Assembly: GCA_019358915.1 (NCBI GenBank)
Contig: JAHHIM010000065.1
Location: forward strand, 128,001 to 192,000
Source of the DNA: Trichormus sp. ATA11-4-KO1
GTDB lineage: Bacteria > Cyanobacteriota > Cyanobacteriia > Cyanobacteriales > Nostocaceae
DNA length: 64,000 bases
Direction: 5' to 3'
The notes under the pieces are model-generated. The model ran no database searches, was not told the origin of the DNA, and saw only the letters and a program-made list of their open reading frames with translations. Positions within the stretch are counted from its first letter, which is position 1; each line of letters opens with the position of its first letter. Positions 1 to 15,710 of the stretch are shown here, one piece after another. Both the position numbers and the translations under genes were made by a program.

Positions 1-813
1 CACGGCTGTTTCAAAGTCCGTCGCGGTCACATAATAGTTGGGAAACACGTCAATCAGTTGTCCTTGGGTGATATCTTTGTCAATTAGCCAATTAGCCAGC
101 AGCACCGGTCCCATACCTGCGATCGCACAGTCGCGGAGCGTGAGGGCGTTCGATATTACTACGTCTCCGTCGATAGGTACTTCGTTCACTATGCCATCGC
201 GATCGCGAAACAACCAGCGCGATCGGAAGTTTGGTAAGGTAAAAAGTAGGCATTTGTGATTTCTCAGGTCATCTGGAACATGTAAAGGCTGCGCCTGCTT
301 TAGGTAAGTGGGGCTGACGCACACCCGGTAGCGTGTATTGAATAACTTGATGCCGAACATACCAATGTCAATACTTGGTCCGAGGCGCACCGCCAGGTCT
401 ATGCGTTCGGACACTAAATCGAGGATCGTATCCGATAATAAAAGTTCAAGTTTGAGCTCCGGAAATAAAGCCCGGAATTCTGGAAGCAATGGCACAATGC
501 ACTTATGACCAAACGCCACTGAGGCTGTGAGGCGCAATGTCCCCACAGGACTGGCACTAACTGCAAGAGCTTCATCACGCGCATGGTCTAGCTCATCAAC
601 CAACGCCTCAATGCGACCGAAGTAGAGATTCCCGGCTTCCGACAAGGCTATGCGCCGTGTCGAGCGCTGGAATAGGCGTAAACCCAACTCGTGTTCGAGA
701 GCAGCAATTGCTCGCGATACGGACGACGGGTCTATATTGCGGTTTCGGGCCACAGCAGCAAAGCTACCACTACGAGCGACTTCGATGAAGATGCGTAAGT
801 TATTTAAATCCAT
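1..813 (-). CDS. LysR-family transcriptional regulator (C-terminus runs off window start)
   Basis: Manual translation from CAT at 811-813: MDLNNLRIFIEVARSGSFAAVARNRNIDPSSVSRAIAALEHELGLRLFQRSTRRIALSEAG, a classic LysR winged HTH. Missing from the ORF track, presumably because the stop lies outside the window. Confidence 0.95.
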   Translation of the reverse strand, partial: MDLNNLRIFIEVARSGSFAAVARNRNIDPSSVSRAIAALEHELGLRLFQRSTRRIALSEAGNLYFGRIEALVDELDHARDEALAVSASPVGTLRLTASVAFGHKCIVPLLPEFRALFPELKLELLLSDTILDLVSERIDLAVRLGPSIDIGMFGIKLFNTRYRVCVSPTYLKQAQPLHVPDDLRNHKCLLFTLPNFRSRWLFRDRDGIVNEVPIDGDVVISNALTLRDCAIAGMGPVLLANWLIDKDITQGQLIDVFPNYYVTATDFETAV

Positions 814-825
814 TCTTGTATAAAA

Positions 826-842
826 TGCACGAATATGATGCA
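826..842. promoter_or_regulatory. Putative LysR operator (TGCA-N9-TGCA dyad containing T-N11-A)
   Basis: TGCACGAATATGATGCA lies 13-29 nt upstream of the lysR start, the usual autoregulatory position. Confidence 0.45.
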
Positions 843-1696: not shown

Positions 1697-3181
1697 ATGA
1701 CACTGAACGAAACAATATACTCTATGAAACTTAAAGATCAGTCTTCTCAAGAGAATAAACCGAAATATAGTCATGATCCCAAAGGATTAGAATTGCCGTC
1801 TGATGCTTTGTCTCATGCTCAAGAAAGCAACGAGCTACTTCAGAAGTATCTGAACTCTGATGAGACTGTAGTAGGATTCGGGTACGGCGGCAGTGAATCC
1901 ATGACGCTTTTTTTGCAGAAACCGGGTAGTGAAAAATTTGTCCGCAAGGTACTGAGTGAACAACTGATTACTCCCAAATGGAGTCGCGAGGGAAGCAATG
2001 TTATGTTACCCCCTTGTGCGAAAGCCAAAAGTCAAACTCAATACCTGATGAATCTGCCGGATACAGTTAAACCTCTTTTCCCCAAAGTACTTAATATTAT
2101 CGAGCGTGAACAAAAAGCAACAGAGGATGATGGCTCTACAGTCTACGAATATATTTACGATATGACTTTTGTTCCTGGTATCGAAGTTAGCCAGTTCGTC
2201 AGAAAATATCACCCGCCGAAGAAAATTGTGGCAGCACTCTACCGCATCATCTTTCAACTTCTGAATGAAAAGATCCACAGCCAACGCCGCCGCCAAGTGT
2301 CATGTCCCACTTTGGAGCAATCATACTTTACCAAAATTGAAAAGCGTCTTGCTCTCGCGCAGGATACGGCACCAAAAACTTTTAGCGACAAACTGCTCAA
2401 AGCCGAAGAGATTATGATTAACGGCAAAAGAATGTCTAATTTGCCTCGTCTGCTGAGAAAATTTCGCCATAATTTAGCGTATCTCGATATTCTTGAGCCG
2501 AAATTCCATTCTCTAGTTGTAGGTGATACTAATACTGAGAATATAAAAATCGGCAATATCGAGCCATTGTTAAGGGATTATGTCAACTTCTCTATCACCA
2601 ACCCTCCCTTCAGCGCTGAGGATTTGGAGATTCGTTTTCTCGATCCACGTGCTATTGGGTTTCATGAAAACGGTGTCGATACTGGTGCCGATGATCCAAT
2701 GTACGACAACAAGCCGTGGCATAATAGCCTGGGCAATTATGACAAAATTCACGGTGAACATTTTGATCTTGCCTACCAGCTGCATAGAAACATACCCCAT
2801 ATTTTTCTTGCCTTTCATGAAGATAATCCGTATGAATATTCATACCGAGGCATAGAGGAACACTTTAGCGAAGTCATGAATGCGTGCTGGAATTTGGACA
2901 ATCCAGATTCAGATATCAATCGCAACGATCCTCACTGGCTCATCCGTTTTGTTTTCCTGATGGGTACGCATTTTATGGCTATGCCACCGTTTCACTTCAG
3001 CAAGGGTAAAGATGGTATTTTAATCGATGACGCACATAACCAAAGCCGTCCTTTGGCCATCTATGCTGAAGGAATTAAATGGCTGAATCTGACTCTGGAT
3101 CTACTCGAAGGAAGAATAGATGAGTTCCACGGTATCCCAGTTAATAAGTTCGGAATTCACAGAAATTTAGTGAACACATAA
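1697..3181 (+). CDS. Uncharacterised protein-kinase-fold (APH/choline-kinase-like) phosphotransferase
   Basis: Motifs in kinase order: GFGYGGSES, FVRK, YDMTFVPG, VGDTNTEN, FLDPR, DDPMYD. AAGGAG RBS upstream. Confidence 0.65.
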   Translation: MTLNETIYSMKLKDQSSQENKPKYSHDPKGLELPSDALSHAQESNELLQKYLNSDETVVGFGYGGSESMTLFLQKPGSEKFVRKVLSEQLITPKWSREGSNVMLPPCAKAKSQTQYLMNLPDTVKPLFPKVLNIIEREQKATEDDGSTVYEYIYDMTFVPGIEVSQFVRKYHPPKKIVAALYRIIFQLLNEKIHSQRRRQVSCPTLEQSYFTKIEKRLALAQDTAPKTFSDKLLKAEEIMINGKRMSNLPRLLRKFRHNLAYLDILEPKFHSLVVGDTNTENIKIGNIEPLLRDYVNFSITNPPFSAEDLEIRFLDPRAIGFHENGVDTGADDPMYDNKPWHNSLGNYDKIHGEHFDLAYQLHRNIPHIFLAFHEDNPYEYSYRGIEEHFSEVMNACWNLDNPDSDINRNDPHWLIRFVFLMGTHFMAMPPFHFSKGKDGILIDDAHNQSRPLAIYAEGIKWLNLTLDLLEGRIDEFHGIPVNKFGIHRNLVNT

Positions 3182-3251
3182 ACTTTTCTATACGTGTAAC
3201 AAAAAAAGATTTTTGCTGATGAAGCTGGAAGTGAAAAAAGGTGTTTGTCCT

Positions 3252-4694
3252 ATGAATTTCTCAAAATTTTCGTCGCCAAGTAGCCAAATTTTTAGTCAAA
3301 ACCAGTGCTTTCGAGGGCTGCTAAATGAGCGACGGATTTTTCCTACCCCTTGGCACTGGTGTGTTCATGGACTGGGGATCGGGCAAGAAGCTACTGGTTT
3401 TGAGCCGGATAAATCGAATCGGTTACTCGAAATAAGTCTTGCACTGTCTCGAAAAACGCAAACTGACTTTCACGTATTCACACATCATTTGTTACATGGT
3501 ATTGTTGCCACTTGTGCGGCTCTATCGTTAAGCGATCGCTACGCCCAACAAATTGCCCATGATCAATTCACAAGTGCAATAGAGCGGTTGCCAAGTCAAC
3601 ATTGGCAGTATGCACGTGCTTGCGCTTTGTTAACAGAAAGTCTAGTGAAACTCGGTCAGCTTGAAGCCTATCGAGATACTATTCATTGGCATTTGGCAAT
3701 TGCATTTAGACAAGTGGCGAGACTAGATCCAACCAATGACAAGCTTCGCTATGAAAAACTACAACTTTTCGCCAATCTCTTGTTAGCAGCAGGACAGGCA
3801 GGTTTTTCGGACTTGGGTGATACCTATGCCGATATAGCCTTGCAAGTGTCTACAACCATTTCCGATGTATTTTATCGAGGTAGAGGTTCAGCAATTATTT
3901 TTTCTGTCTTGGCAATTATCGGCTGCCAAGAGCAAGTATGCACTGGCCAAGAAAATCATCTTCAGAGGCTTTTGGATATCTTTGATGCAAAGTTAAATCA
4001 CTCATCAAGCCGAGATGCAGATGGTGTCCATGAGGGAAACGATTACTATATATTTCCCCTCTCGTTGATACTTAATGCAATTGCCGTATTGGATCGTCTT
4101 GATTATTTGATTTATCAAAGAGACTGGGTACAGCAAACCGTATCGTTGTTTCATACGCTTTCGCCAGCTTCCCAAGCTTCGCAGATCACCTTTTTTCTTT
4201 ATGCATTGGATAATCTGGGGATGCTTGATATGTATGTACCCGATGTGGTCACATTCTTTGATCAATGTATGCAAGGATATCTACAATCAACAGATGGCTT
4301 CCGAGTTGATGATTATTTACGCTGTACTTACCTGATTCATCTGGCGTGCCAGTTAGGAAGACCCGATATCCTTCATCCTCGCGTTTTGTCAATCTTGTCG
4401 TCAAGTGTAGCACAAGCGCCAGATTCTCAACGTTATTTGCAAAGCACTTATGGCTCCAGTTATATGGTTGCGGCCTATGCTTTATCTGCGTTCGATAGAC
4501 TCAGCCGATTAGATTTGTTGTTTAGTGAACAATTTAGCCTACCCGATGCCATTAGTCGTTTTCAAGATGACCCTGATGCCACAGCAATACATTCATCAAT
4601 AACTGCGTTGGCGCTGATGGAAACAGGGCTGCGAATGCGTCCTGTTGAATTTAGTGATACGCCGCTTTTCAATAATATTCAAATCAACAAGTAA
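3252..4694 (+). CDS. Hypothetical alpha-helical repeat protein
   Basis: About 480 aa ORF with recurring LxxAxxxLGxLDxx-like units. Start placed at ATG 3252; the ORF track starts at 3213. Confidence 0.7.
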   Translation: MNFSKFSSPSSQIFSQNQCFRGLLNERRIFPTPWHWCVHGLGIGQEATGFEPDKSNRLLEISLALSRKTQTDFHVFTHHLLHGIVATCAALSLSDRYAQQIAHDQFTSAIERLPSQHWQYARACALLTESLVKLGQLEAYRDTIHWHLAIAFRQVARLDPTNDKLRYEKLQLFANLLLAAGQAGFSDLGDTYADIALQVSTTISDVFYRGRGSAIIFSVLAIIGCQEQVCTGQENHLQRLLDIFDAKLNHSSSRDADGVHEGNDYYIFPLSLILNAIAVLDRLDYLIYQRDWVQQTVSLFHTLSPASQASQITFFLYALDNLGMLDMYVPDVVTFFDQCMQGYLQSTDGFRVDDYLRCTYLIHLACQLGRPDILHPRVLSILSSSVAQAPDSQRYLQSTYGSSYMVAAYALSAFDRLSRLDLLFSEQFSLPDAISRFQDDPDATAIHSSITALALMETGLRMRPVEFSDTPLFNNIQINK

Positions 4695-4816
4695 TAGTGT
4701 TGAAAAGCATTACTACATTGTCCGTTCCCAAGCATAGGACACTGTTGAAAAAACGTATCTAGTAATACATTAATATACATCTGATTCAGAAGCACAGATT
4801 CTCAAGGAGTGGGTAA

Positions 4817-5290
4817 ATGAGTGAAATCTCCGTGGTAAAACTACAAGTAAATGGAGAAGAAAAGGTAGTAAATGTTGCATATGACACACCAATTTTATGG
4901 ATACTTCGGGATCATCTGGGACTGAATGGGACAAAATTCGGTTGTGGGATGGCACAATGTGGTGCGTGTACAATACTTTTTGACGGTGTTCCCATACGTT
5001 CATGCGTGACACCAGTATCAGCAGTTGTTAACCAAGAAATATTAACTATAGAAGGTCTTGCGGCAAATAGTAATCACCCGATTCAGCAGGCGTGGGCAGA
5101 ACTAGATGTGCCGCAATGTGGATATTGTCAGTCGGGGCAAATGCTTGCTGCTGCGGCACTACTTTGTCAGAAGCAGCAACCCACAGATGCAGATATTGAT
5201 GCGGCGATGTCCGGCAACATTTGTCGTTGCGGTACTTATCAAAGCATCCGAGCCGCTATCCATAGAGCTGCTGATCTCATGTCCGCCTAA
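4817..5290 (+). CDS. Isoquinoline 1-oxidoreductase/aldehyde oxidoreductase-type small (2Fe-2S) subunit (IorA-like)
   Basis: GTKFGCGMAQCGACT, SC, QCGYCQSG and NICRCGTY cysteine motifs for two 2Fe-2S clusters. Confidence 0.95.
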   Translation: MSEISVVKLQVNGEEKVVNVAYDTPILWILRDHLGLNGTKFGCGMAQCGACTILFDGVPIRSCVTPVSAVVNQEILTIEGLAANSNHPIQQAWAELDVPQCGYCQSGQMLAAAALLCQKQQPTDADIDAAMSGNICRCGTYQSIRAAIHRAADLMSA

Positions 5291-5308
5291 ATAAGGAGAG
5301 TTGCCAGG

Positions 5309-7462
5309 ATGGAACCAAATATAATGAAGCGGCGCACTTTCCTGAAAGCATCCGGTGAAGTCGGCGTGGGTTTGTTTCTTGGGTTTTATTTGCCACTGCC
5401 CAATCGCCTGCAAGCCGCCGCCTCCCCAGCCAATCAAACACAGCCTCAGATCAATGCATTTATCAGGATTGTGCCGGATAATACCGTCACAATTATTGTG
5501 CATAAAGCGGAAATGGGGCAGGGAGTTTATACCTCTTTACCCATGATACTTGTCGAAGAACTCGAGGCCGATTGGGACAAAATTCGCATTGAATCTGCGC
5601 CTGTGCATCCCGACTATGACCATACCGTGTGGAAACATTATCAAGGTACGGGCGCTAGCACTAGTGTCAGCTCCACTTGGGATCAACTGCGGATCGCTGG
5701 TGCTACAGCACGTGAAATGTTGATTGCTGCGGCTGCAACAGTATGGGATGTATCACCGGGGAGTTGTGTGGCCGAAAAAAGTTATATCTTACATCCAGCG
5801 AGCGATCGCCGCTTATCTTTTGGAGAAGTAGCCGATCGCGCCGCTCAAATGCCGATCCCGGAGAACGTAACACTCAAAAAACCGAGTGAATTCAAACTCA
5901 TCGGTAAACCCATCAAGCGCTTAGACACCGACGACAAAGTTAAGGCTAAAGCAGTATTCGGGATCGATGTCCAAATTCCCGGTATGCTGATAGCAGTGAT
6001 GGCGCGTCCGTCAGTGTTTGGCAGTCGCTTGCAGCATTTTGACGCTGAGGCTGCCAAGGCTATTGCAGGAGTGAAACATGTGGTAGCACTGCCTATGGGT
6101 GTAGCTGTGGTAGCAGATAACTTCTGGGCAGCGAAAAAAGGGCGTGATGCACTGACAATCACATGGGATGAGGGACTTAATGCCGAGCTTTCATCTGAAG
6201 CCCTACTGTGCAAATATGCCGACCTAGCAAATAATTCTGGATTGGTCGTCAGAAAAACAGGCGCAGCAACATCAGCACTTGATGCAGCAGCCAAAAAGCT
6301 GGCAGCAGTATACGAAACACCTTACCTCGCCCATGCGCCAATGGAGCCATTAAACTGTGTGGCTGATGTGCGATCGCATAGTTGCGATATCTGGACTGGT
6401 ACACAGATGCAGACGACCGACCAGCAAGCAGCTTGTGAAATTACCGGACTGAAGCCCGAACAGGTGCAGATTCATACGACTTTACTGGGTGGTTCCTTTG
6501 GACGACGTTCTAATCCACATGGGGATTACGTCAAAGAAGCCGTGCAACTATCCAAAGCCATTAACAAACCGGTCAAAGTGATCTGGACGCGGGAAGACGA
6601 TATCAGAGGCGGCTATTATCGTCCGATGCATTACAGCACAATTGCCGCAGGACTAGATAAAAATGGCAACATTACTGCATGGTCTCATCGGTTGATTGGT
6701 GAGTCCATCGGCAAAGGTACTCCCTTTGAAAAGTTATTGATTCATGAAGGCATTGATCACCTTGCCATTGAAGGAGCAGATCACCCTTACGCAATTCCCC
6801 ACCAACTGGTAGATTATCACCCGGTTGATAATGGTGTGCCAGTGCTATGGTGGCGTTCTGTTGGTCACAGTTTCACAGCCTTTGTTGTTGAATCTTTCTT
6901 GGATGAATTAGCCGCCACATCTGGGCGAGATCCACTGGAATTGCGGCTTTCCATGTTAGGTGAGCAGCCACGACATCGAACCACCCTGGAACTCGCTGCG
7001 GAAAAAGCCGGTTGGGGAGGCCAGCTGCCCACAGGTGTTTACCAAGGGCTGTCCTTACATAAATCATTCGGTAGTATCGTTGCCCAGGTTGCTGAAGTAT
7101 CTGTTACCACCGATGGCAAGCCCCATATTCACCGAGTAATCTGTGCGGTGGATTGCGGTATCGTGATCAACCCTGACACTGTGCGCGCCCAAATGGAATC
7201 AGGCATTGTGTATGGCTTATCCGCCGCCTTGTATGGAGAGATTACATTTAAAAACGGTCGTGTACAGCAAAGTAATTTTCACGATTATCCTGTACTACGC
7301 ATGAATGAAATGCCAAAAATCGAAGTTTATATTGTGCAAAATACCGAAAAACCTAGCGGTGTAGGTGAAATTGCCACACCAGCGATCGCACCTGCGGTCT
7401 GCAACGCGATTTTTGCAGCAACAGGCAAACGAATTCGACGACTTCCTATAAGCAGGGGATAG
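5309..7462 (+). CDS. IorB-like molybdopterin-binding large subunit of the xanthine oxidase family, Tat signal
   Basis: KRRTFLK Tat motif; EMGQG, AHAPMEP, GGSFGRR, WRSVG and GVGE motifs. Confidence 0.95.
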
Positions 7463-7525
7463 GGGACAGTAACGATAATGCTCCCTCATTTTTGCAATCA
7501 GCACTCAGATAAACCAGGAGGTAAA

Positions 7526-8623
7526 ATGACCACAACAACAACTGCTGCCGTAGTCCATGAACCCCAGGGGCAATTTACATTTGAAACCATTGAACTCGAT
7601 GATCTACGCAGCAACGAAATATTGGTTCGCAACCAAGCAAGCGGTATCTGCCATACAGATTTTGTAGCGCAAAATCTGATGAAACTGCCGGCTGTATTGG
7701 GTCACGAAGGCGCGGGGGTAGTGGAAGCTGTGGGATCAGGAGTCAGCCGAGTTAAACCAGGTGACCGAGTAATTCTTTCTTATCCTTGGTGTGGTGTTTG
7801 TCATGGGTGTCTAGAGGGTCAACCTTATTTCTGCGATCATCATATTCCCTTGGGATTTGGCGGCACTCGCTTAGACGGCTCGCACACAATTAAGTTGAGT
7901 GCAGAACGCATTTCTGGCGCATTTTTTCAGCAGTCCTCATTTGCTAACCACTCAATTACAGTAGAGCGCAATGTCGTGCCAGTTACTAGCAATCAAGCTG
8001 CCGAGATGTTGGCGGCCATTCCCTGTGGGGTACAAACTGGCGCGGGTTCTATTCTGAATACATTTAAAGTCAGCCCCAGAGACGGTTTGGCGATTTTCGG
8101 TGCTGGTGCTGTAGGTTTGAGTGCAGTTATGGCGGGTAAGCTAGTCGGTGCGTCGCCATTAATTGCTATCGACGTGGTAGAAGCGCGCTTGCATCTCGCT
8201 CTGGAATTGGGTGCCACCCATGTATTAAATGCCAAAGACGGGCAAGTTGCCGAGCGAATTAAAGAAATTGCTCCTCATGGTGTGCGCTATACCTTGGAGA
8301 CCTCTGGAAATGAGCAAGCACTCAACGATGCGATCGCCTGTCTGTCTACTGGTGGAGAATGCGGTATGGTAATTGCGCCCCATTTTGGCGAAAAATATCC
8401 GTTTTCCCCAACGCAAATTTTTAAACGTGCAGCAAATTTGCGGGGAATTATTCAAGGGTCTTCTGTACCAAATACGTTTTTGCCGACATTACTGGAATTA
8501 AATCAGCAAGGACGCTTTCCCTTTGAACGTTTGATCACTGTTTATGATTTTGAAGATATCAACAAAGCTGTGGCAGATACTAAAGCCGGTAAGGCAATCA
8601 AACCTGTTCTGAAAATGTCATAG
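7526..8623 (+). CDS. Zn-dependent NAD(P) alcohol dehydrogenase, aryl/benzyl-alcohol dehydrogenase type
   Basis: GICHTD, GHEGAG, CGVCHGC..C structural Zn, GAGAVG, FFQQSSFA. AGGAGG RBS before ATG 7526. Confidence 0.9.
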   Translation: MTTTTTAAVVHEPQGQFTFETIELDDLRSNEILVRNQASGICHTDFVAQNLMKLPAVLGHEGAGVVEAVGSGVSRVKPGDRVILSYPWCGVCHGCLEGQPYFCDHHIPLGFGGTRLDGSHTIKLSAERISGAFFQQSSFANHSITVERNVVPVTSNQAAEMLAAIPCGVQTGAGSILNTFKVSPRDGLAIFGAGAVGLSAVMAGKLVGASPLIAIDVVEARLHLALELGATHVLNAKDGQVAERIKEIAPHGVRYTLETSGNEQALNDAIACLSTGGECGMVIAPHFGEKYPFSPTQIFKRAANLRGIIQGSSVPNTFLPTLLELNQQGRFPFERLITVYDFEDINKAVADTKAGKAIKPVLKMS

Positions 8624-8678
8624 TCAGCTGTCTTTTACGGCTTTTGAATTTAATAGCAAAGAAAAGGAAATCTCAGTT

Positions 8679-9209
8679 ATGCAATTTATCGTATTTCTCT
8701 TAGCTGCCTTCTTGATGGGAGCCATTACCCCCATCTATCTGCCAATGAATAGCTCAGTGGCTCGGTATGTAGGTTCGCCAATTCTAGCCAATATGGCTTT
8801 CTTTTTCATGGGTCTAGCCACCACTCTCATAGCTTTGTCCATCACCTTGCTATTGACATCAAACACCGATGGGTTAGCGATCGCCGCAAAATTTAGAAAT
8901 GTGCCAATCTATCTATATCTTAGTGGTGTCTTTAGTGCTTTGTTAATCTTGGGAACCAGCGTTTTGATTCCCCGGTTGGGAGCTAGTACTTTTTTTGTTT
9001 TGTTTGTCTTGGGTCAGGTAGTAATGGCAGCAGTGGTCAGTCATCTAGGCATTTTAGAGTCTCCTAAAGACCCAATTTCGCTCCAAAAAATCGTTGGTAT
9101 CATCTTTTTAATTACAGGTGTAGGGCTAACCACATTTTCTCATGCTAAAGAAATCAGTTGGCTACCTACGGTCTTGAAGAGCGTTCGTGCCAGCCTTTGG
9201 GGCACATAG
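8679..9209 (+). CDS. DMT superfamily small transporter (YdcZ/DUF606-like)
   Basis: About 5 hydrophobic segments; NSSVARYVGSP, PRLGA, GQ and HLG pattern. Confidence 0.8.
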   Translation: MQFIVFLLAAFLMGAITPIYLPMNSSVARYVGSPILANMAFFFMGLATTLIALSITLLLTSNTDGLAIAAKFRNVPIYLYLSGVFSALLILGTSVLIPRLGASTFFVLFVLGQVVMAAVVSHLGILESPKDPISLQKIVGIIFLITGVGLTTFSHAKEISWLPTVLKSVRASLWGT

Positions 9210-9253
9210 CAGTGACCAGCAAAAACTTTAGCAAAATTTAGTAGAGGAGTGAA

Positions 9254-9691
9254 ATGCTAGTAAACGTTACAACCAGTTCTGTAATCAACGCATCTGTTAA
9301 ACAAGTGTGGGCGAAAGTCCGGAACTTTAACGGTCTGCCTGACTGGTATCCGTCTGTAATCGACAGCCACATAGAAAATGGTGAACCTAGCGATAAAATA
9401 GGCTGTATCCGGAGTTTTAATCGTGAAGATGGGCTAACTCTACGAGAGCAATTACTAGGACTTGATGATCAAAAACATGTCTGCACCTATCTCCTGTTAG
9501 AGCCTAGTCAGCCAATGACAGACTATATTTGCACTCTGCGGCTGTTACCAATTACAGATGGCGATCGCACTTATATCGAATGGTTGGCAGACTTTAAATG
9601 CTTACCTGAAGAAGAACCCGGATTACGGCAGAATCTAGAACAGGTGTTTCAGGTCGGTTTTGATGCCTTGAACAAAAGTTTCAGCAGCTAA
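9254..9691 (+). CDS. SRPBCC/polyketide cyclase-dehydrase (MxaD-like) protein
   Basis: INASVKQVWAKVRNFNGLPDWYP ... IGCIRSF ... LREQLL pattern. Confidence 0.85.
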   Translation: MLVNVTTSSVINASVKQVWAKVRNFNGLPDWYPSVIDSHIENGEPSDKIGCIRSFNREDGLTLREQLLGLDDQKHVCTYLLLEPSQPMTDYICTLRLLPITDGDRTYIEWLADFKCLPEEEPGLRQNLEQVFQVGFDALNKSFSS

Positions 9692-9713
9692 CAAAAAGAT
9701 TCTGGCTTGAGAT

Positions 9714-9859
9714 TATAGCGTTTTCTCATCTGCTGAAGTACTGAATACATCGCTAATAAAATTTGACAATCTTTGCGTAACTCTGCGCTACCTTAGCGTT
9801 CTTCTGCGTTAAAAAATATTAGTTCTGTACCTCACTTAATTGGGAATCGAATCGCTATA
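9714..9859. mobile_element. MITE-like insertion inside the cluster
   Basis: TATAGCG...CGCTATA termini with internal CTCTGCG/CTTTGCG-type short repeats. Confidence 0.55.
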
Positions 9860-9884
9860 TGGCTTCTCTGTATGTTAAGGAATA

Positions 9885-11036
9885 GTGATGGATTTTAGCA
9901 AACGAGCTTTTTTGAAAACAGCAATGGATTTGTCTATCGGTGCGGTAGTGAGTCCATTGGCGACAGGTGCAGCCGAAGTTGTTGATTATACTCCTAAGAA
10001 CAGCAAGAACGTCGTCAAGAAAATAGCAATTGAAGAGGCCTTTGCAACGCCGGAATTATTTGCTGAGTGGCAAAAACTTCTCGCTACTAATGCGGAAAAT
10101 GAACCAGGATTCCGCAAATTATATGCACCGTTTCTCAGTAGCCCCGCCACTAAAAATATACGTGACCGACTTACTGACCTGGGAGCAGGCCGGATTCGCG
10201 ACATGGATCAACATGGCATTGACATGCAGATATTGTCAATTACGTCGCCGGGTATTCAGGTGTTCAGTACAAACAAAGCAGTTGATCTGGCCAGAAAAAG
10301 TAATGATCAGCTAGCTGAATTTGTACATGCTTACCCAAATCGCTATGCTGGACTTGCAGCAGTGGCAACCCAGGCACCAGATCAAGCAGCACGCGAGTTG
10401 GAAAGGGCGGTAAAAGATTTAGGGCTAAAGGGTGCAATCATTAATTCCCACACTCAGGGTGAGTATTTGGATCAACAAAAATATTGGGTACTGTTTGAGG
10501 CAGCTCAAGCCTTGGATGTCCCAATTTATCTGCACCCCAGAACACCCTCTCCAGAGATGATCAAACCCTTTCTGGCCTATGGACTAGAAGGTGCCGGTTG
10601 GGGGTTTGCAGTTGAGACCAGTTTGCACGCGATGCGCTTAATTCTCAGTGGTTTATTTGATGAATTTCCTCAACTAAAATTTATTTTGGGTCATATGGGT
10701 GAGGGTATACCGTTCTGGCTTCCCCGCATCGATAGTCGTTTTGCTAATAAAACATGGACGGAGATGGATGCTTCTGGTCGAGTAAAACAGAGGCAAAAAA
10801 CACCAAGCGAATATTTCCTAAACAACTTTGCGATCGCCACCAGTGGTGTAAACTGGCCGCCAGCGTTGATGTTTGCACTTTCAGTACTGGGCCCCGACCG
10901 TATTTTGTTTGCCATTGACTATCCTTATGAATCCACAGCCCAAGCGGTAGCAGGAATAGATAGTGCTCCCATCAGCGATATTGATAGGAAAAAGATATAC
11001 CATCTCAACGCAGAAAAGTTGTTTAAACTGAACTAG
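9885..11036 (+). CDS. Amidohydrolase-2 family non-oxidative aromatic acid decarboxylase (LigW-like)
   Basis: IAIEEAF, LSITSPGIQ, INSHT, YLHPR, GHMGEGIPFW and FAIDYPYE match the LigW layout. N-terminal SKRAFLK extension. Confidence 0.85.
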   Translation: MMDFSKRAFLKTAMDLSIGAVVSPLATGAAEVVDYTPKNSKNVVKKIAIEEAFATPELFAEWQKLLATNAENEPGFRKLYAPFLSSPATKNIRDRLTDLGAGRIRDMDQHGIDMQILSITSPGIQVFSTNKAVDLARKSNDQLAEFVHAYPNRYAGLAAVATQAPDQAARELERAVKDLGLKGAIINSHTQGEYLDQQKYWVLFEAAQALDVPIYLHPRTPSPEMIKPFLAYGLEGAGWGFAVETSLHAMRLILSGLFDEFPQLKFILGHMGEGIPFWLPRIDSRFANKTWTEMDASGRVKQRQKTPSEYFLNNFAIATSGVNWPPALMFALSVLGPDRILFAIDYPYESTAQAVAGIDSAPISDIDRKKIYHLNAEKLFKLN

Positions 11037-11072
11037 CCGTCAATTTGTGTGGAGGGTAGGGTTATTTATTCG

Positions 11073-11190
11073 ACCACAGAGACACAGAGGAGCCACTGCG
11101 GTGGTGAGGCAGTCCGCAGAAGAGGGGGTTCCCCCCAGGAGGAACTGCCGAAAGGGTTCCCCGGCATAAAGCAAGTGGCGTGACACAGAG
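11073..11190. repeat. Nested small dispersed repeats
   Basis: GAGCCACTGCGG...GGGTTCCCCGGCATAAAGCAAGTGGCGT interrupted by GAGGCAGT...GGGGTTCCCCCC...AACTGCCG and flanked by ACACAGAG units. Confidence 0.6.
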
Positions 11191-11236
11191 TAAAGAGGCA
11201 ATTTTTACCTACTTTTCATTGAGTTCTGTGCTATCT

Positions 11237-12388
11237 ATGAAAGAACTTCAAAACATACTGGCAGCTTTTAAGCAAGCTCAACAGCAAGGTCACCTGACAG
11301 CCTTAGCTACTGTTGTGAAAACTAGCGGCTCCGTTTATCGTCGCCCTGGTGCGCGGATGCTGCTGACTGAATTTGGCGAAATGATTGGCTGCATCAGTGG
11401 TGGTTGCTTGGAAAGTCATGTGTTTGAACTTGCACAACCACTGATGTTTTATGGTGGCGACCCCGTTGTTATTGAATATGACACCACCGCCAGCAACGAT
11501 ATTATTTGGGGATTTGGTCTAGGTTGCAATGGTGCAGTTCAGGTACTCATTGAGCCGCTCTCTGATTCATTAGCCATCGGTCAGCTAGAATTTATCGCTG
11601 AATGCCTTTACGGGCAGCAGTCAGGGGTCATGGCTACGGTATTTTCTGTGCATGGAGAAATTAATGCTCAAGTGGGATCTCGATTGCTGCTCAAGCCAGA
11701 TTATCCAGTTATGAATAATATTCAAGATCAAGCTTTTGCTGATCGGGTTTTAGCAGACGCTTGGCAAGTACTCCCACAAGGATGCTCCCGAGTAAAATCT
11801 TACACTTTACCTGACGGGATTGTGGAAGTGTTTTTGGAAGTTATCCACCCCCTTGTGCCTTTAGTCATCTTCGGTGCAGGTCATGATGCCATTCCAGTTG
11901 TGAGCCTCGCTAAACACCAAGGTTGGCATGTTACAGTCGTAGATAACAGACCAGGCTACATAACATCTGAGCGTTTTCCCGATGCTGATCAAATTATTTT
12001 CAGCGACCCCCAAGAAATCCACAAGCACCATCTTCTCACATCACGCATGGTCGCTGTAATTATGACTCATCAATATAAAACTGATTTAGTATTGCTCAGA
12101 AATTTGTTACCATTAGCAGTGCGTTACATCGGGATATTAGGTCCAAAAAGCCGGACTCAGCAATTATTACAAGACCTAAAATCAGAGGGATTTATACCAA
12201 CTCCTGCACAACTAAAAAGTTTGTTTAGTCCTGTAGGTCTTGATATTGGAGCTGATTCACCAGAAGCAATTGCGCTCTCGATTGTGGCAGAAATTCAAGC
12301 AGTTTTAGAAAATCGCGCTGGTGGTTTGCTGAGGCAGCGATTCGGGTCAATTCATAGAAAGGATGTATCATGTCCGGTGTCGGTCTAA
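11237..12388 (+). CDS. xdhC: XdhC/CoxI family Moco-insertion chaperone
   Basis: GSVYRRPGARM, GCISGGCLE, GLGCNG, GAGHDA, YIGILGP, PVGLDIGA. Start placed at ATG 11237. Confidence 0.92.
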   Translation: MKELQNILAAFKQAQQQGHLTALATVVKTSGSVYRRPGARMLLTEFGEMIGCISGGCLESHVFELAQPLMFYGGDPVVIEYDTTASNDIIWGFGLGCNGAVQVLIEPLSDSLAIGQLEFIAECLYGQQSGVMATVFSVHGEINAQVGSRLLLKPDYPVMNNIQDQAFADRVLADAWQVLPQGCSRVKSYTLPDGIVEVFLEVIHPLVPLVIFGAGHDAIPVVSLAKHQGWHVTVVDNRPGYITSERFPDADQIIFSDPQEIHKHHLLTSRMVAVIMTHQYKTDLVLLRNLLPLAVRYIGILGPKSRTQQLLQDLKSEGFIPTPAQLKSLFSPVGLDIGADSPEAIALSIVAEIQAVLENRAGGLLRQRFGSIHRKDVSCPVSV

Positions 12389-12975
12389 TTATTCTGGCGG
12401 CTGGTGCATCCACCCGTATGGGAACACCCAAGCAACTGCTTAAATATGGTCAGCAGAGCTTAATCTATCACGTAGTTGAAGTAGCGATCGCCTCAGTTTG
12501 CCACCCAGTAATTGTTGTAATTGGGGCAGATGCTGAACGCATTAAACAAGAGATTGAACCATTACAAGTACATACTGTAGAAAATCCACTTTGGGTGGAG
12601 GGAATGAGTACTTCCATTCGTGTTGGCATGGAAACATTGAATGCAATCAACCCAGAAGCAGAAGCTGTTGTCTTGATGCTGTGTGATCAACCTTTGGTCT
12701 TTCCTCAACTTATTAATCAGTTGGTTGAGATACATCAAACTACTTTGAAGCTAATTGTTGCTTCAGAATATGCAGATATTCTAGGCGTTCCCGCTTTATT
12801 TAACCGTGTTTTATTTTCAAAACTAATTACACTCAGTGGTATGAGTGGTGCAAGACAAATAATTAAAAAGTATGCTCAGGAAGTTATTGGTATTCCCTTC
12901 CCCGCAGGTTTAATCGATTTGGATACACCAAAAGATTACGAGCAATTCCTCGGACTATCTAACTTAGGAGTTTGA
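12370..12975 (+). CDS. mocA: Molybdenum cofactor cytidylyltransferase (MocA-like nucleotidyltransferase)
   Basis: ILAAGASTRMGTPKQLL, GMSTSI, LCDQP, DLDTP; overlaps the xdhC end. Confidence 0.85.
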   Translation: MSGVGLIILAAGASTRMGTPKQLLKYGQQSLIYHVVEVAIASVCHPVIVVIGADAERIKQEIEPLQVHTVENPLWVEGMSTSIRVGMETLNAINPEAEAVVLMLCDQPLVFPQLINQLVEIHQTTLKLIVASEYADILGVPALFNRVLFSKLITLSGMSGARQIIKKYAQEVIGIPFPAGLIDLDTPKDYEQFLGLSNLGV

Positions 12976-13313: not shown

Positions 13314-13550
13314 ATGGCAAATATCACACTTTCTGAACTACACGCTGCTGGTTCTGAATTGTTTCAAGATTCTGAAAGTTTTCTTCAAGAACTCAACGAT
13401 GTAGATTCTATCTCCGGCGGTGCAGAGGCTTACTACAACCCTGTCAGTGACATTTCCACACTGACTAAGCTAGCTGAAGCCTTTGTTATTACATACAGCG
13501 TTGAGCATATCACCTACTTAGCCAAGTCATTTAGCGTTGGTGTATATTAA
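13314..13550 (+). CDS. Double-glycine-leader peptide precursor (bacteriocin-like), isolated
   Basis: Leader MANITLSELHAAGSELFQDSESFLQELNDVDSISGG; GAGGAG RBS. Confidence 0.75.
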   Translation: MANITLSELHAAGSELFQDSESFLQELNDVDSISGGAEAYYNPVSDISTLTKLAEAFVITYSVEHITYLAKSFSVGVY

Positions 13551-13786: not shown

Positions 13787-14299
13787 TCATTCAGACACAG
13801 TAGTTGCACCAACTGCCATTACTTGAGACCATTCACTGACACGGTTACTATCTAAAACAGCACGCACTCGATAACCAAGCTGAATCTTGTGCATTAACAA
13901 GATTAAATCACGGTTGAGTAATCCTTGTGATTTTTGGTTTTCATTAGATGCAACTTGTAAACGAAAGCAGCGATCGCTTTGCCGTTTCAACTTTGGAGAT
14001 TTCCCCTCCATCAACACCGTTTGTAGTTCGTATTCTTTAGCTTCAGGATACGGTTCCCAGCAAAGTTGCCAGTAAGTTGACCAGCGAATTAAGTCTGATG
14101 GTAATTCCTCGACTTCATCCGACAATGTAGAGACAAGTCCTGTGACTGGAAGTTGTATCACCTCAGGCTGATTAGTGGAGATGTTAGCAGCTAAAGAGGA
14201 ACTTCCATCAATACTTAGTATCAGTCCGAATATCAAAGTGAACAGCACAATCAATCGTAGGCATTGTAATTGCACTAGCAATAAGATTTTCAGATTCAT
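13787..14299 (-). CDS. Hypothetical exported protein (small beta-rich domain, Cys pair)
   Basis: Hydrophobic N-terminus ending SSLA; LCWEPYPEAKEYEL ... YRVRAV ... SEWS resembles an Fn3-like strand pattern. Confidence 0.6.
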   Translation of the reverse strand: MNLKILLLVQLQCLRLIVLFTLIFGLILSIDGSSSLAANISTNQPEVIQLPVTGLVSTLSDEVEELPSDLIRWSTYWQLCWEPYPEAKEYELQTVLMEGKSPKLKRQSDRCFRLQVASNENQKSQGLLNRDLILLMHKIQLGYRVRAVLDSNRVSEWSQVMAVGATTVSE

Positions 14300-14411
14300 A
14301 ATGATGTAAAAGTCAGTTGCTTACACCTGGGATAGGTAGAATTGTTTCAGAGGTCTAGAACTGTTTGATGGTAAGGATTTTGAATCCAAAATCTAAAATC
14401 CAAAATTGGTA

Positions 14412-15710
14412 TTACCACTCCACAGGTAAAATCAGGCTGCCATTATCGGCATAGATTGTTCGAGAACGGATATGCGTTCTGGGAGCTACTGTAGAATTGA
14501 AGACTGCGCTTCTTTGCCCAACTGCTGAGTTGTTGCCGATGCTGGCGCGGAATATAACAGAATTCGGCCCTAGCCCTACGGCATCACCTATGCTAGTCTC
14601 AGGGCCATTAGCAACACCATTAACAACCTGTCTACCACCATGAATTAGAACACGTGGCCCGTAACCAACTCCATTACCAAGAGTCAAACTAGTGGTTTCT
14701 AACGCGTGAAAGACAACATCGTTTGCCATCCCAGCAATTTGGCCAACATTAAAAGGTTCTCCCTCATCAGCACGCAGCGAAATTCTACTAGCTAGTTTGT
14801 TGGTGAGTGTTGCTAAAGAATCTTGGAAAGTGATGTTGCCGATAATGCGGTTACGATAGTTTGGATCGCGAGTCGCACTTCCACCTATCTGCGGCAGACC
14901 TCCAGAGTTAAAAAAGGTGACGGGAGCATAATTAATTCCTGTTACGTTTGTCAAGTCTGCTCTAGCTAAGTCTGTATAACCTTTGGCAAATGCTTCATTG
15001 ACTTCAATGATGCCTTCCATCAATGCAACGTCGGCTTGTGTTAGGTTGACTACTTTCCCCAAAGTGCCGCTAGCAGCTTCTAGGTTAGTTGTAACGTTTT
15101 TACCAGGTAGAACAACTTTACCAGCAGGTAAGGTAACACCAGGGCCAACCCGCGCTAGAAAATTGACTACTGTGTTTCTTTCTATAGTTGCACCATCTAT
15201 TTCACAGTTGAAGGCAAGAAATGTCTCCGGAATATCATTGTTAAACTGAGTATTGGTAACTGGGTCGCTAAAAGGCCCAGTTGAGCCTTGAGTACCAATT
15301 TTGGCTGCACCTTTAACAACAGCCATGTGTGCCATAATCACACGCTCGCCAATTTGTACTCCGGTTCCCGAAGCTATGATTTTTACCTGGTCTTGAGCAT
15401 TAGAATCTGCTGCGATGCTAATAGGCGCATGAGTAGCATCTAACTCAGCAAATGGGGCAACATAGACTTTTTCGCCCAAGGTTATATTTGTGGGATTAGT
15501 GATGATTGCAGTTGGGTCAACGAAACTAGCTGACTCGGAAGGTGCAGTACTTGGGCATATAGGTAGGTTTCCCAAAGTTGGATTACACGTTACTCCAGCA
15601 GCTACTGCGGGTTTTATATATATCTGTGTACTGATGGCAAACGCTAGGATAATTGCAGTTAAGGCACTAAAATTTGTGCGAGATTTGAACATAGAAAGAA
15701 AAGTCCTCAC
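14412..15710 (-). CDS. Secreted tandem left-handed beta-helix protein, gamma-carbonic anhydrase (Cam)-like
   Basis: Signal peptide; hexapeptide repeats; Cam-like motifs FVDPTAII, AHMAVVKG, EVNEAFAKGY, LRADEG, VVFHALET, VLIHGG. Confidence 0.8.
   Translation of the reverse strand: MRTFLSMFKSRTNFSALTAIILAFAISTQIYIKPAVAAGVTCNPTLGNLPICPSTAPSESASFVDPTAIITNPTNITLGEKVYVAPFAELDATHAPISIAADSNAQDQVKIIASGTGVQIGERVIMAHMAVVKGAAKIGTQGSTGPFSDPVTNTQFNNDIPETFLAFNCEIDGATIERNTVVNFLARVGPGVTLPAGKVVLPGKNVTTNLEAASGTLGKVVNLTQADVALMEGIIEVNEAFAKGYTDLARADLTNVTGINYAPVTFFNSGGLPQIGGSATRDPNYRNRIIGNITFQDSLATLTNKLASRISLRADEGEPFNVGQIAGMANDVVFHALETTSLTLGNGVGYGPRVLIHGGRQVVNGVANGPETSIGDAVGLGPNSVIFRASIGNNSAVGQRSAVFNSTVAPRTHIRSRTIYADNGSLILPVEW

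Follow-up and report, generated by a model that had tools for sequence, protein, structure and literature searches.

Kinases of the APH/choline-kinase fold share a catalytic lysine, an Asp-x4-Asn loop and a metal-binding aspartate, and in class V lanthipeptide systems a kinase of this type (LxmK) stands beside a partner lyase (LxmY), the two acting as a split dehydratase. Here we describe a ten-gene cluster in a 64,000-nucleotide stretch (the window) of Trichormus sp. ATA11-4-KO1 (GCA_019358915.1, contig JAHHIM010000065.1, positions 128,001 to 192,000), which opens with a predicted kinase, KIN, and a predicted helical toroid, REP, and continues with eight tailoring genes, the redox line. The cluster is real and its genes are co-conserved; because they recur together in other genomes and phyla, the arrangement goes beyond chance. 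The enzyme pair at its base is undescribed, and the system as a whole is real, rare and shared between phyla; a biosynthetic role is its likeliest, though unproven, reading. Specifically, we regard it as an evenly balanced proposition that the pair builds a small hydroxy-(hetero)aromatic compound, which then undergoes oxidation, export and periplasmic decarboxylation.

Like LxmK/LxmY, the KIN–REP pair sets an APH-like kinase beside a partner enzyme, and its predicted helical toroid, whose conserved residues fall close to where every other helix begins, may resemble that of the LanC cyclases; unlike lanthipeptide systems, it has no precursor peptide, no conserved Cys-Cys-His zinc site, nine hairpins, and small-molecule enzymes as partners. 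A sibling form, in which a FabD-like acyltransferase (AT) accompanies the pair, resembles the gamma-butyrolactone-controlled production clusters of Streptomyces (presumably of the jad/mmy-type layout), since AfsA/ScbA, TetR receptors, a response regulator, ArsR and an MFS exporter adjoin the core. It differs from them in having two core genes only, with no polyketide synthase (PKS), nonribosomal peptide synthetase (NRPS) or carrier protein seen, and its regulator cassette is absent from the redox form found in the window. By analogy, the system may work like a kinase-plus-lyase pair feeding an alcohol–aldehyde–acid–decarboxylation line. The KIN–REP core appears to be new, and the eight tailoring genes belong to known families; no publication describing the cluster in its title or opening abstract lines was found in the open-licence literature, its genes carrying no name to search by.

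The KIN and REP proteins

KIN (1697..3181, plus strand; 494 residues) belongs to a family without a name and is a predicted APH/choline-kinase-fold phosphotransferase. Its AlphaFold model (predicted local distance difference test, pLDDT, 88.6) adopts a bilobal kinase fold with 206 Foldseek matches at E ≤ 0.001. The closest folds are Rv3168 (Z 17.2, root-mean-square deviation [rmsd] 3.9 over 311 residues), choline kinase B (Z 17.1) and LicA (Z 16.9), and a feature search gave 0.96-0.98 to APH-bearing clusters. The residues G62/G64/G65, K84, D277, N282, D316 and D337 are invariant across 53 aligned rows, so that the APH-type catalytic lysine (K84), the Asp-x4-Asn loop (D277/N282) and the metal-binding aspartate (D316) are all kept. 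KIN thus shares predicted fold and catalytic motifs with Rv3168 (3att), choline kinase (2ig7), LicA (4r77), N-acetylhexosamine kinase (4ocj) and 25-hydroxysteroid kinase (9fsg). It departs from the named APH-fold kinases, against which it scores Z 15-17, in its identity of 9-16%, its lack of a Pfam APH match (none to PF01636, even at E ≤ 0.1), about 150 additional residues and its toroid partner. A KIN profile found no match among PDB sequences. Given the fold and the invariant catalytic residues, KIN is likely an active small-molecule phosphotransferase.

REP (3252..4694, plus strand; 480 residues), likewise of an unnamed family, is predicted to form a closed alpha/alpha toroid consisting of an N-terminal segment followed by nine helical hairpins (pLDDT 91.9; predicted template-modelling score 0.91). 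The protein that it matches best in structure (Z 16.1, rmsd 4.4 over 372 residues) is a designed 9-repeat alpha/alpha toroid. The LanC-type cyclases score Z 10-11.5 (nisin cyclase 11.5; rmsd 5.4-6), a level below that which the tool treats as meaningful for helical repeats, and this similarity may reflect only a common helical arrangement. Y167, R211, Y360 and Y409 are invariant in 99 rows, and P33 and W34 almost so. Each of the four invariant residues lies 4-6 positions into the second helix of a hairpin, a placement that, judged from the predicted secondary structure, would be expected of a pocket on one face of the toroid. From its invariant Tyr/Arg residues, REP is likely an enzyme rather than a scaffold.

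The REP family is small: a profile search of 1.84 billion representatives returned 90 hits, the weakest of which are TPR/ankyrin repeat noise, and Pfam annotation of 27 of the 90 named no family for the REP domain. Searches of PDB sequences with the REP profile and of structures with Foldseek (E ≤ 0.001) gave no match, and the Atlas search returned hypothetical clusters only, all below 0.9. Neither KIN nor REP matched a Pfam family at E ≤ 0.1, an NCBIfam family or a PADLOC model. An anti-phage defence system was considered and rejected, with one chance-level KwaA hit among 5 proteins (PADLOC) and no REP match among 50,697 phage records. Among distant REP relatives, P0190, P0199, P0208, P0216, P0225, P0228 and P0241 retain H35, D257, H260 and R357.

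The structural neighbours raise the question of a peptide-modifying system, in which a lanthipeptide-like kinase would act with a LanC-like cyclase, or of a protein kinase with a helical scaffold, either of which would precede a redox operon only by coincidence. Of the natural folds compared with REP, the LanC-type cyclases rank among the best, the class V kinase LxmK lies near KIN (Z 15.0), and a leader-type peptide gene follows the cluster at 13314. Against this, no 20-100-residue small open reading frame recurs beside the pair except shadow frames (1468 examined), the peptide at 13314 has no homologue in related loci, and the redox orthologues follow KIN strictly. REP also has nine hairpins and no cysteine conserved family-wide, C358 being invariant only among 37 close rows. 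We consider such an explanation very improbable. The downstream gene itself (13314-13550, plus strand) encodes a 78-residue peptide with what we take to be a double-glycine-type leader; of its seven paralogues elsewhere in the genome, six form an array on contig C10.

Recurrence of the pair and its two partner sets

The first-pass annotation had called the two leading genes orphans. A genome scan with KIN instead returned 123 loci, although neither protein has a Pfam or NCBIfam family. The counts below use the best 80 of these loci (labelled L) with flanks of up to 10 kb; two loci share a genome and many are close kin. REP lies within 10 kb of KIN in 76 of the 80. Among the four loci without an adjacent REP, three are near contig ends; REP is encoded elsewhere in the genomes of L028 and L056 and was not found in the metagenome-assembled genomes (MAGs) of L011 and L013. 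The core recurs in at least seven phyla, also on plasmids, and is annotated only as "hypothetical protein" or "ACP S-malonyltransferase". Both genes proved to be co-conserved with the redox genes across phyla when the neighbourhoods of the 1697 and 3252 proteins were compared. The pair is nevertheless rare and patchily distributed, with REP in 2 of 401 genomes sampled across the phylum and KIN in 13 of 389 genomes of the family. Within the best 80 of the 123 loci, the closest named one is that of Anabaena sp. CCY 9613 (KIN 97% identical). Metagenome loci add further cases, with L087, identical to the window, excluded.

KIN is fused to REP in giant proteins of Omnitrophota. Giant chains of up to 4795 residues (L020:4982-14656, L021, L024, L028 and P0158-P0163; Omnitrophota and Eisenbacteria where named) link AT, AT-like and KIN domains with between one and four copies of REP, some adding ARMT1, HAD, APH or aldolase domains. 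On the 12-kb Acinetobacter larvae plasmid pRW1 (L081), KIN and REP occur with two toxin-antitoxin pairs; KIN is absent from the record's gene table, and the MFS and AT regions match in several separate pieces.

Two mutually exclusive partner sets accompany the pair. A FabD-like AT is present in 58 of the 80 loci, in most cases as a fusion to KIN and in others as a free protein or joined to REP, and none of these 58 carries IorA, IorB, SRPBCC, LigW or aryl-alcohol dehydrogenase (aryl-ADH) genes (one unrelated 22% ADH hit in L041 was set aside). An aryl-ADH orthologue occurs in 18 of the 80 and never shares a locus with AT. The 22 loci without AT reduce to 21 once L042, which begins inside KIN and groups with the AT clade, is removed. 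These AT-less loci carry aryl-ADH (18; 58-99% identity), an IorA-type subunit (18), a molybdenum large subunit (17), SRPBCC (17), an amidohydrolase (17), DMT (12 by BLAST, plus L017 by Pfam), XdhC (9) and MocA (8), the last two often lying beyond the flank end. In a KIN tree of 82 rows (quick method; partial L027 omitted; long branches for L015, L017 and L018), a branch with support 99 sets the AT-less rows apart from all others, and they span Cyanobacteriota, alpha-, beta- and gamma-type Pseudomonadota and Myxococcota. The Aquabacterium locus L018 keeps the gene order of the window (KIN-REP-IorA-IorB-ADH-SRPBCC-LigW).

Among 389 family genomes, orthologues of ADH and of LigW (E ≤ 1e-100) occur in the same 12, all of them among the 13 KIN genomes and on the same contig as KIN. 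In other phyla the slots are refilled: L015, L019, L022, L095 and L100 place a different amidohydrolase subfamily (25-27% identity) in the LigW position, and L019, L022 and L095 a different molybdenum large subunit (31-33%) in the IorB position. Because non-orthologous enzymes occupy these slots, the comparison indicates that reactions rather than genes are conserved in the redox line and that its link to the pair is functional, beyond inheritance.

The two core proteins differ in how they track the partner set. About 100 KIN positions are near-invariant over both clades, with few and mostly mild differences, whereas in the AT clade other residues replace every one of REP H35, H39, D257, H260, D264, S310, Q311 and R357 (the His-type group of this comparison includes database proteins without genomic context). 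With KIN near-invariant and eight REP residues swapping by clade, the kinase step looks common to both clades and the toroid pocket appears to vary with the partners.

In the AT domain, the serine of a G-E-S motif and a histidine are invariant in 59 rows, so that a Ser-His dyad is present. Its matches are weak (FabD 5ypv, E 0.008; MdcH, E 2e-8), and the position that we take to bind malonate through arginine in FabD, equated here by spacing from the serine, is phenylalanine in 92% of rows; the domain thus appears to lack the malonate arginine. A second downstream AT-like region ("AT2") has only marginal similarity to the first and was set aside as degenerate AT-like at most. No AT homologue was found in the Trichormus genome. 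Of the AT-type loci, 37 have a 12-helix-type MFS gene nearby, 23 (plus L042) have ArsR, 19 have a response regulator and 13 have an AfsA-family gene. TetR receptors, a ScbA/BarX synthase and a response regulator abut the AT form; the AfsA-family protein of L063 passes the ScbA/BarX cut-off, and the annotation of L082 displays an AfsA/MFS/regulator layout, which we presume to be of the butyrolactone-controlled production type.

Losses from the redox form bear on another explanation, namely that the true product is a reactive alcohol or aldehyde made by KIN and REP, perhaps with SRPBCC, and that the redox line is optional self-protection destroying what leaks instead of completing it. In L010, KIN, REP and SRPBCC remain, an NmrA reductase and a PapA5-like acyltransferase are encoded downstream, and the genome has no ADH or LigW orthologue, SRPBCC thus being retained even where the redox line is lost; in L012 and L091, IorB is internally deleted. 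We nevertheless judge this explanation improbable: the redox line is kept in 17-18 of the 21 AT-less loci and refilled by non-orthologous enzymes, and the AT clade lives without it. In L010 (4387-9569), a 460-base gap follows the redox-clade KIN-REP-SRPBCC genes, then NmrA, the PapA5-like acyltransferase (8s6l, E 3e-27) and genes for an NHL protein and an SDR, linkage over the gap being unproven; the REP-SRPBCC-NmrA arrangement also occurs in L089, L090 and L094.

The redox line, its probable compartments and its putative regulator

The ten open reading frames of the window (1697-12975) are intact and all on the plus strand. The first-pass annotation had described them as consecutive genes with short spacers, a self-contained cluster headed by a kinase-fold and a helical-repeat protein. 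The kinase fold and the all-helical build are upheld in the AlphaFold models, and the family names given to genes 3-10 are borne out by Pfam and NCBIfam matches. The spacers, computed with the likely starts 3252, 7529 and 11237, are 70, 122, 18, 66, 55, 44, 193, 200 and -19 bases in gene order, thus mostly short, with one overlap, though three measure 120-200 bases. The cluster is not self-contained, being accompanied by a divergent LysR gene and by genes for a beta-hydroxyacid dehydrogenase and an azoreductase. Its G+C content is 44.7%, compared with 41.7% for the genome. Scans of the cluster for promoter-like sites (24 vs 27.7 expected) and terminator-like sites (11 vs 12.1) stayed at chance level and do not support co-transcription.

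Oxidation would be carried out by three genes. An IorA-like 2x[2Fe-2S] small subunit of a molybdenum hydroxylase (4817..5290; PF01799 and PF00111, Fer2_2/Fer2) precedes an IorB-like molybdopterin large subunit (5309..7462; PF02738 and PF20256, MoCoBD_1/2), which has a twin-arginine (RR) leader, also present in the orthologues compared, and is likely a periplasmic aldehyde dehydrogenase. The nearest solved chain to IorB is 8gy3_C, "large subunit of aldehyde dehydrogenase" (E 1e-84), which we take to be a periplasmic enzyme of an acetic acid bacterium. As in the periplasmic molybdenum aldehyde dehydrogenases (8gy3, PaoABC, IorAB type), an RR-leader molybdenum subunit and a 2x[2Fe-2S] subunit are encoded with XdhC and MocA alongside; the likeness to IorAB is by type, isoquinoline 1-oxidoreductase itself lying outside the comparison. 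Unlike those enzymes, the cluster has no FAD or cytochrome subunit and is tied to KIN–REP. The zinc aryl-ADH (7529..8623; ADH_N/ADH_zinc_N) is closest to benzyl alcohol dehydrogenase (1f8f, E 3.7e-89), and its motifs indicate two zinc sites.

A predicted YdcZ-type DMT inner-membrane transporter follows (8679..9209; PF04657, DMT_YdcZ, E 7e-27), then an SRPBCC protein (9254..9691; PF10604, Polyketide_cyc2; PDB matches 7tmu, 3f08 and 3cnw). The latter had been counted as a cyclase-fold gene, a label for which its closest kin, uncharacterised XoxI-like proteins, give no evidence. The cluster ends with XdhC, a molybdenum-cofactor chaperone (11180..12388, start possibly 11237; PF13478, PF02625), and a MocA-like cytidylyltransferase (12370..12975; NTP_transf_3; TIGR03310 at E 2e-45, below cut-off), each the sole copy that tblastn found in the genome.

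Between SRPBCC and XdhC lies a predicted LigW-type metal decarboxylase (9885..11036; Amidohydro_2) that resembles LigW/LigW2, the 5-carboxyvanillate decarboxylase of sphingomonad lignin catabolism (LigW2 4inf, E 1e-84), in its manganese ligands and general acid. Its E50, H217 and D345 align to the metal ligands Glu19, His188 and Asp314. One report describes a LigW metal centre that binds the substrate hydroxyl and its neighbouring group (PMC8187880), and the ligands are kept here. Because manganese ligands and general acid are retained, the protein likely decarboxylates an ortho-hydroxy aryl acid. It differs from LigW/LigW2 in its Tat-like leader, in the absence of lig catabolic genes nearby, and in phenylalanine and lysine in the region that corresponds to Tyr51/Arg58 of LigW2.

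Twin-arginine translocation (Tat) leaders were identified by eye. The leader of the LigW-type protein reads KR in cyanobacteria and RR in L017 and L018; KIN, REP, ADH and SRPBCC have none. The molybdoenzyme and the LigW-type decarboxylase are therefore likely periplasmic, a point that the first-pass annotation had not raised. The replacement amidohydrolases also lack a leader, so that export of the decarboxylase is not universal.

The divergent LysR-type regulator gene (1..813, minus strand) extends beyond the left end of the window (whole gene G000:C65:127917-128813, G000 being this genome and C its contigs); its best NCBIfam model is YafC (E 8e-59, below cut-off). LysR orthologues (48-98% identity) adjoin the cluster in L001, L002, L009, L014, L017 and L018. 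A dyad, TGCA-N9-TGCA, containing T-N11-A, adjoins the lysR start (826..842) and is a likely LysR operator. It recurs upstream of azoR on C12 in this genome, upstream of azoR in L002, and upstream of the beta-hydroxyacid dehydrogenase in L009. LysR might thus control gene 1 or the operon, a link that is unproven because a profile of the operator gave no hit in front of KIN in the loci from Nostoc; the dyad lies 880 bases from gene 1. The LysR-azoR arrangement may be compared with CrgA-mdaB, described as a quinone response (PMC2724274).

The C12 azoreductase (G000:C12:86718-87469) is 71% identical to that of the L002 cluster and sits behind a lysR-start relic and the same operator dyad; it has likely moved out of the cluster while staying in the regulon. 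Left of the window, beyond lysR, a minus-strand block (L105, G000:C65:118267-126827) encodes vanadium-haloperoxidase-like, WD40, peroxiredoxin-like, spondin-domain and MsrQ-like proteins, together with a beta-etherase-like GST and a beta-hydroxyacid dehydrogenase. The last recurs in 7 of the 21 AT-less loci, and a haloperoxidase-like gene (29%) also stands beside the Aquabacterium cluster L018. GSTs near the loci were ruled out as a conserved part, since those of different groups share about 25% identity and are not orthologues. Downstream, outside the cluster, 13787-15710 (minus strand) encodes a hexapeptide-repeat protein that looks secreted and bears a weak resemblance to gamma carbonic anhydrase, along with an unassigned product of 170 residues.

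Possible biosynthesis or detoxification

The biosynthetic pathway that we propose, in which the pair would make a small ring compound out of a primary metabolite and the eight downstream genes would modify and export it, would run in four steps. First, KIN would phosphorylate a hydroxyl of a sugar- or polyol-type precursor, a substrate class suggested beside the observed catalytic residues and predicted fold. Second, REP would eliminate the phosphate, close the ring or do both, and the result would be an ortho-hydroxy(hetero)aryl alcohol or aldehyde; the enzymatic role is suggested by its invariant Tyr/Arg residues and the product class by reasoning backwards from the decarboxylase. Third, the cytoplasmic aryl-ADH would set the aldehyde level and the DMT protein would move the compound out. 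Fourth, the Tat-exported molybdoenzyme, matured by XdhC/MocA, would convert it to the acid, from which the LigW-type enzyme, likewise Tat-exported, would remove CO2, the leaders being observed and the location and order presumptive. Since oxidation and decarboxylation would follow export, the cytoplasm would be spared the reactive end product. The sibling clade has an acyltransferase in place of the redox line. Candidate products, which we treat as leads only, are gentisyl or salicyl alcohol, gabosine-type cyclitols, hydroxymethyl-furans, kojic-acid-type pyrones and pyridoxine analogues.

The preference for biosynthesis over catabolism in the first-pass annotation stands in part: sibling clusters with exporters and a gamma-butyrolactone synthase favour it, but periplasmic enzymes suit an incoming compound equally. 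Its remark that ring-cleavage and uptake genes are lacking holds for the cluster, and none recurs beside the pair in the loci scanned. A complete aromatic catabolic operon was rejected for want of a linked ring-cleavage dioxygenase or uptake system, and no described operon matched. Intradiol, gentisate and Rieske ring-hydroxylating dioxygenases were not found in the 99.9% complete genome. An NRPS/PKS cluster was likewise rejected, with no carrier protein with a condensing or ketosynthase domain in the ten genes or recurring neighbours.

Several observations weigh against a biosynthetic role. The companions of LysR (azoreductase, GSTs and the beta-etherase-like GST) are typical of electrophile stress modules. 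The probable periplasmic location of IorB and the LigW-type protein would fit attack on an incoming compound equally well. The AfsA link belongs to the sibling clade, not the redox form, and would represent one or two events, because it is found mostly in one Streptomycetaceae clade and one Curtobacterium locus; a receptor-binding motif turned up in just 1 of 14 AfsA-type loci. In L011, KIN is apart from the redox genes, in the MAG in which REP was not found; L010 is without the redox line, and L012, with its deleted IorB, has no LigW orthologue. The genome also encodes one unlinked DODA-type extradiol dioxygenase. 25-Hydroxysteroid kinase, whose fold is close to that of KIN (Z 15.3), serves an ATP-dependent phosphorylation-dehydration in steroid catabolism (PMC8449060).

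Such features would suit an explanation that we consider rather unlikely, in which the cluster detoxifies or partly breaks down an aldehyde or alcohol, hydroxy-aromatic or heteroaromatic, that comes from a plant, fungal or microbial source outside. The compound would undergo oxidation and lose CO2 in the periplasm, be reduced or phosphorylated in the cell interior and then be expelled, with KIN and REP conjugating or dehydrating it and the AT form inactivating the same class by acylation. Beyond the Tat-like leaders, the catabolic kinase precedent and the DODA-type dioxygenase, the explanation draws on the LysR operator common to azoR and the beta-hydroxyacid dehydrogenase, on neighbours such as GST, flavodoxin-like reductase, ArsR, MarR and MFS, and on the many nearest folds of KIN that are kinases modifying antibiotics or xenobiotics. 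Against it stand the ScbA/BarX synthase, TetR receptors and response regulator abutting the AT form, and the absence of a recurring importer or ring-cleavage gene. Moreover, redox orthologues occur in 0 of 376 KIN-less genomes of the family, whereas generic aldehyde detoxification would not need KIN. The DODA-type gene lies in an unlinked stress block (L107, G000:C4:143704-149891), whose other genes we take to be MarR, DoxX-like and two GST genes.

Returning to the biosynthetic reading, we put forward, tentatively and as a possibility short of even, that an as yet unrecognised class of small-molecule biosynthesis has KIN–REP as its founding core, in which a kinase together with a new nine-hairpin toroid enzyme would make a sugar-type metabolite into an aromatic ring by phosphorylation and elimination, the product being finished either by AT or by a membrane-split pathway with a periplasmic decarboxylase. 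The core has no family model and no solved relative by sequence, yet it occurs beside butyrolactone regulators in streptomycetes and inside giant Omnitrophota proteins. The system is directly testable, as the sibling form comprises two genes only and conserved residues for inactivation are identified. If biosynthetic, the pair would mark a class of natural-product clusters in which the customary signature enzymes are missing, a new toroid enzyme takes part and the finishing step is periplasmic; if detoxifying, it would still represent an undescribed pathway with a new enzyme family.

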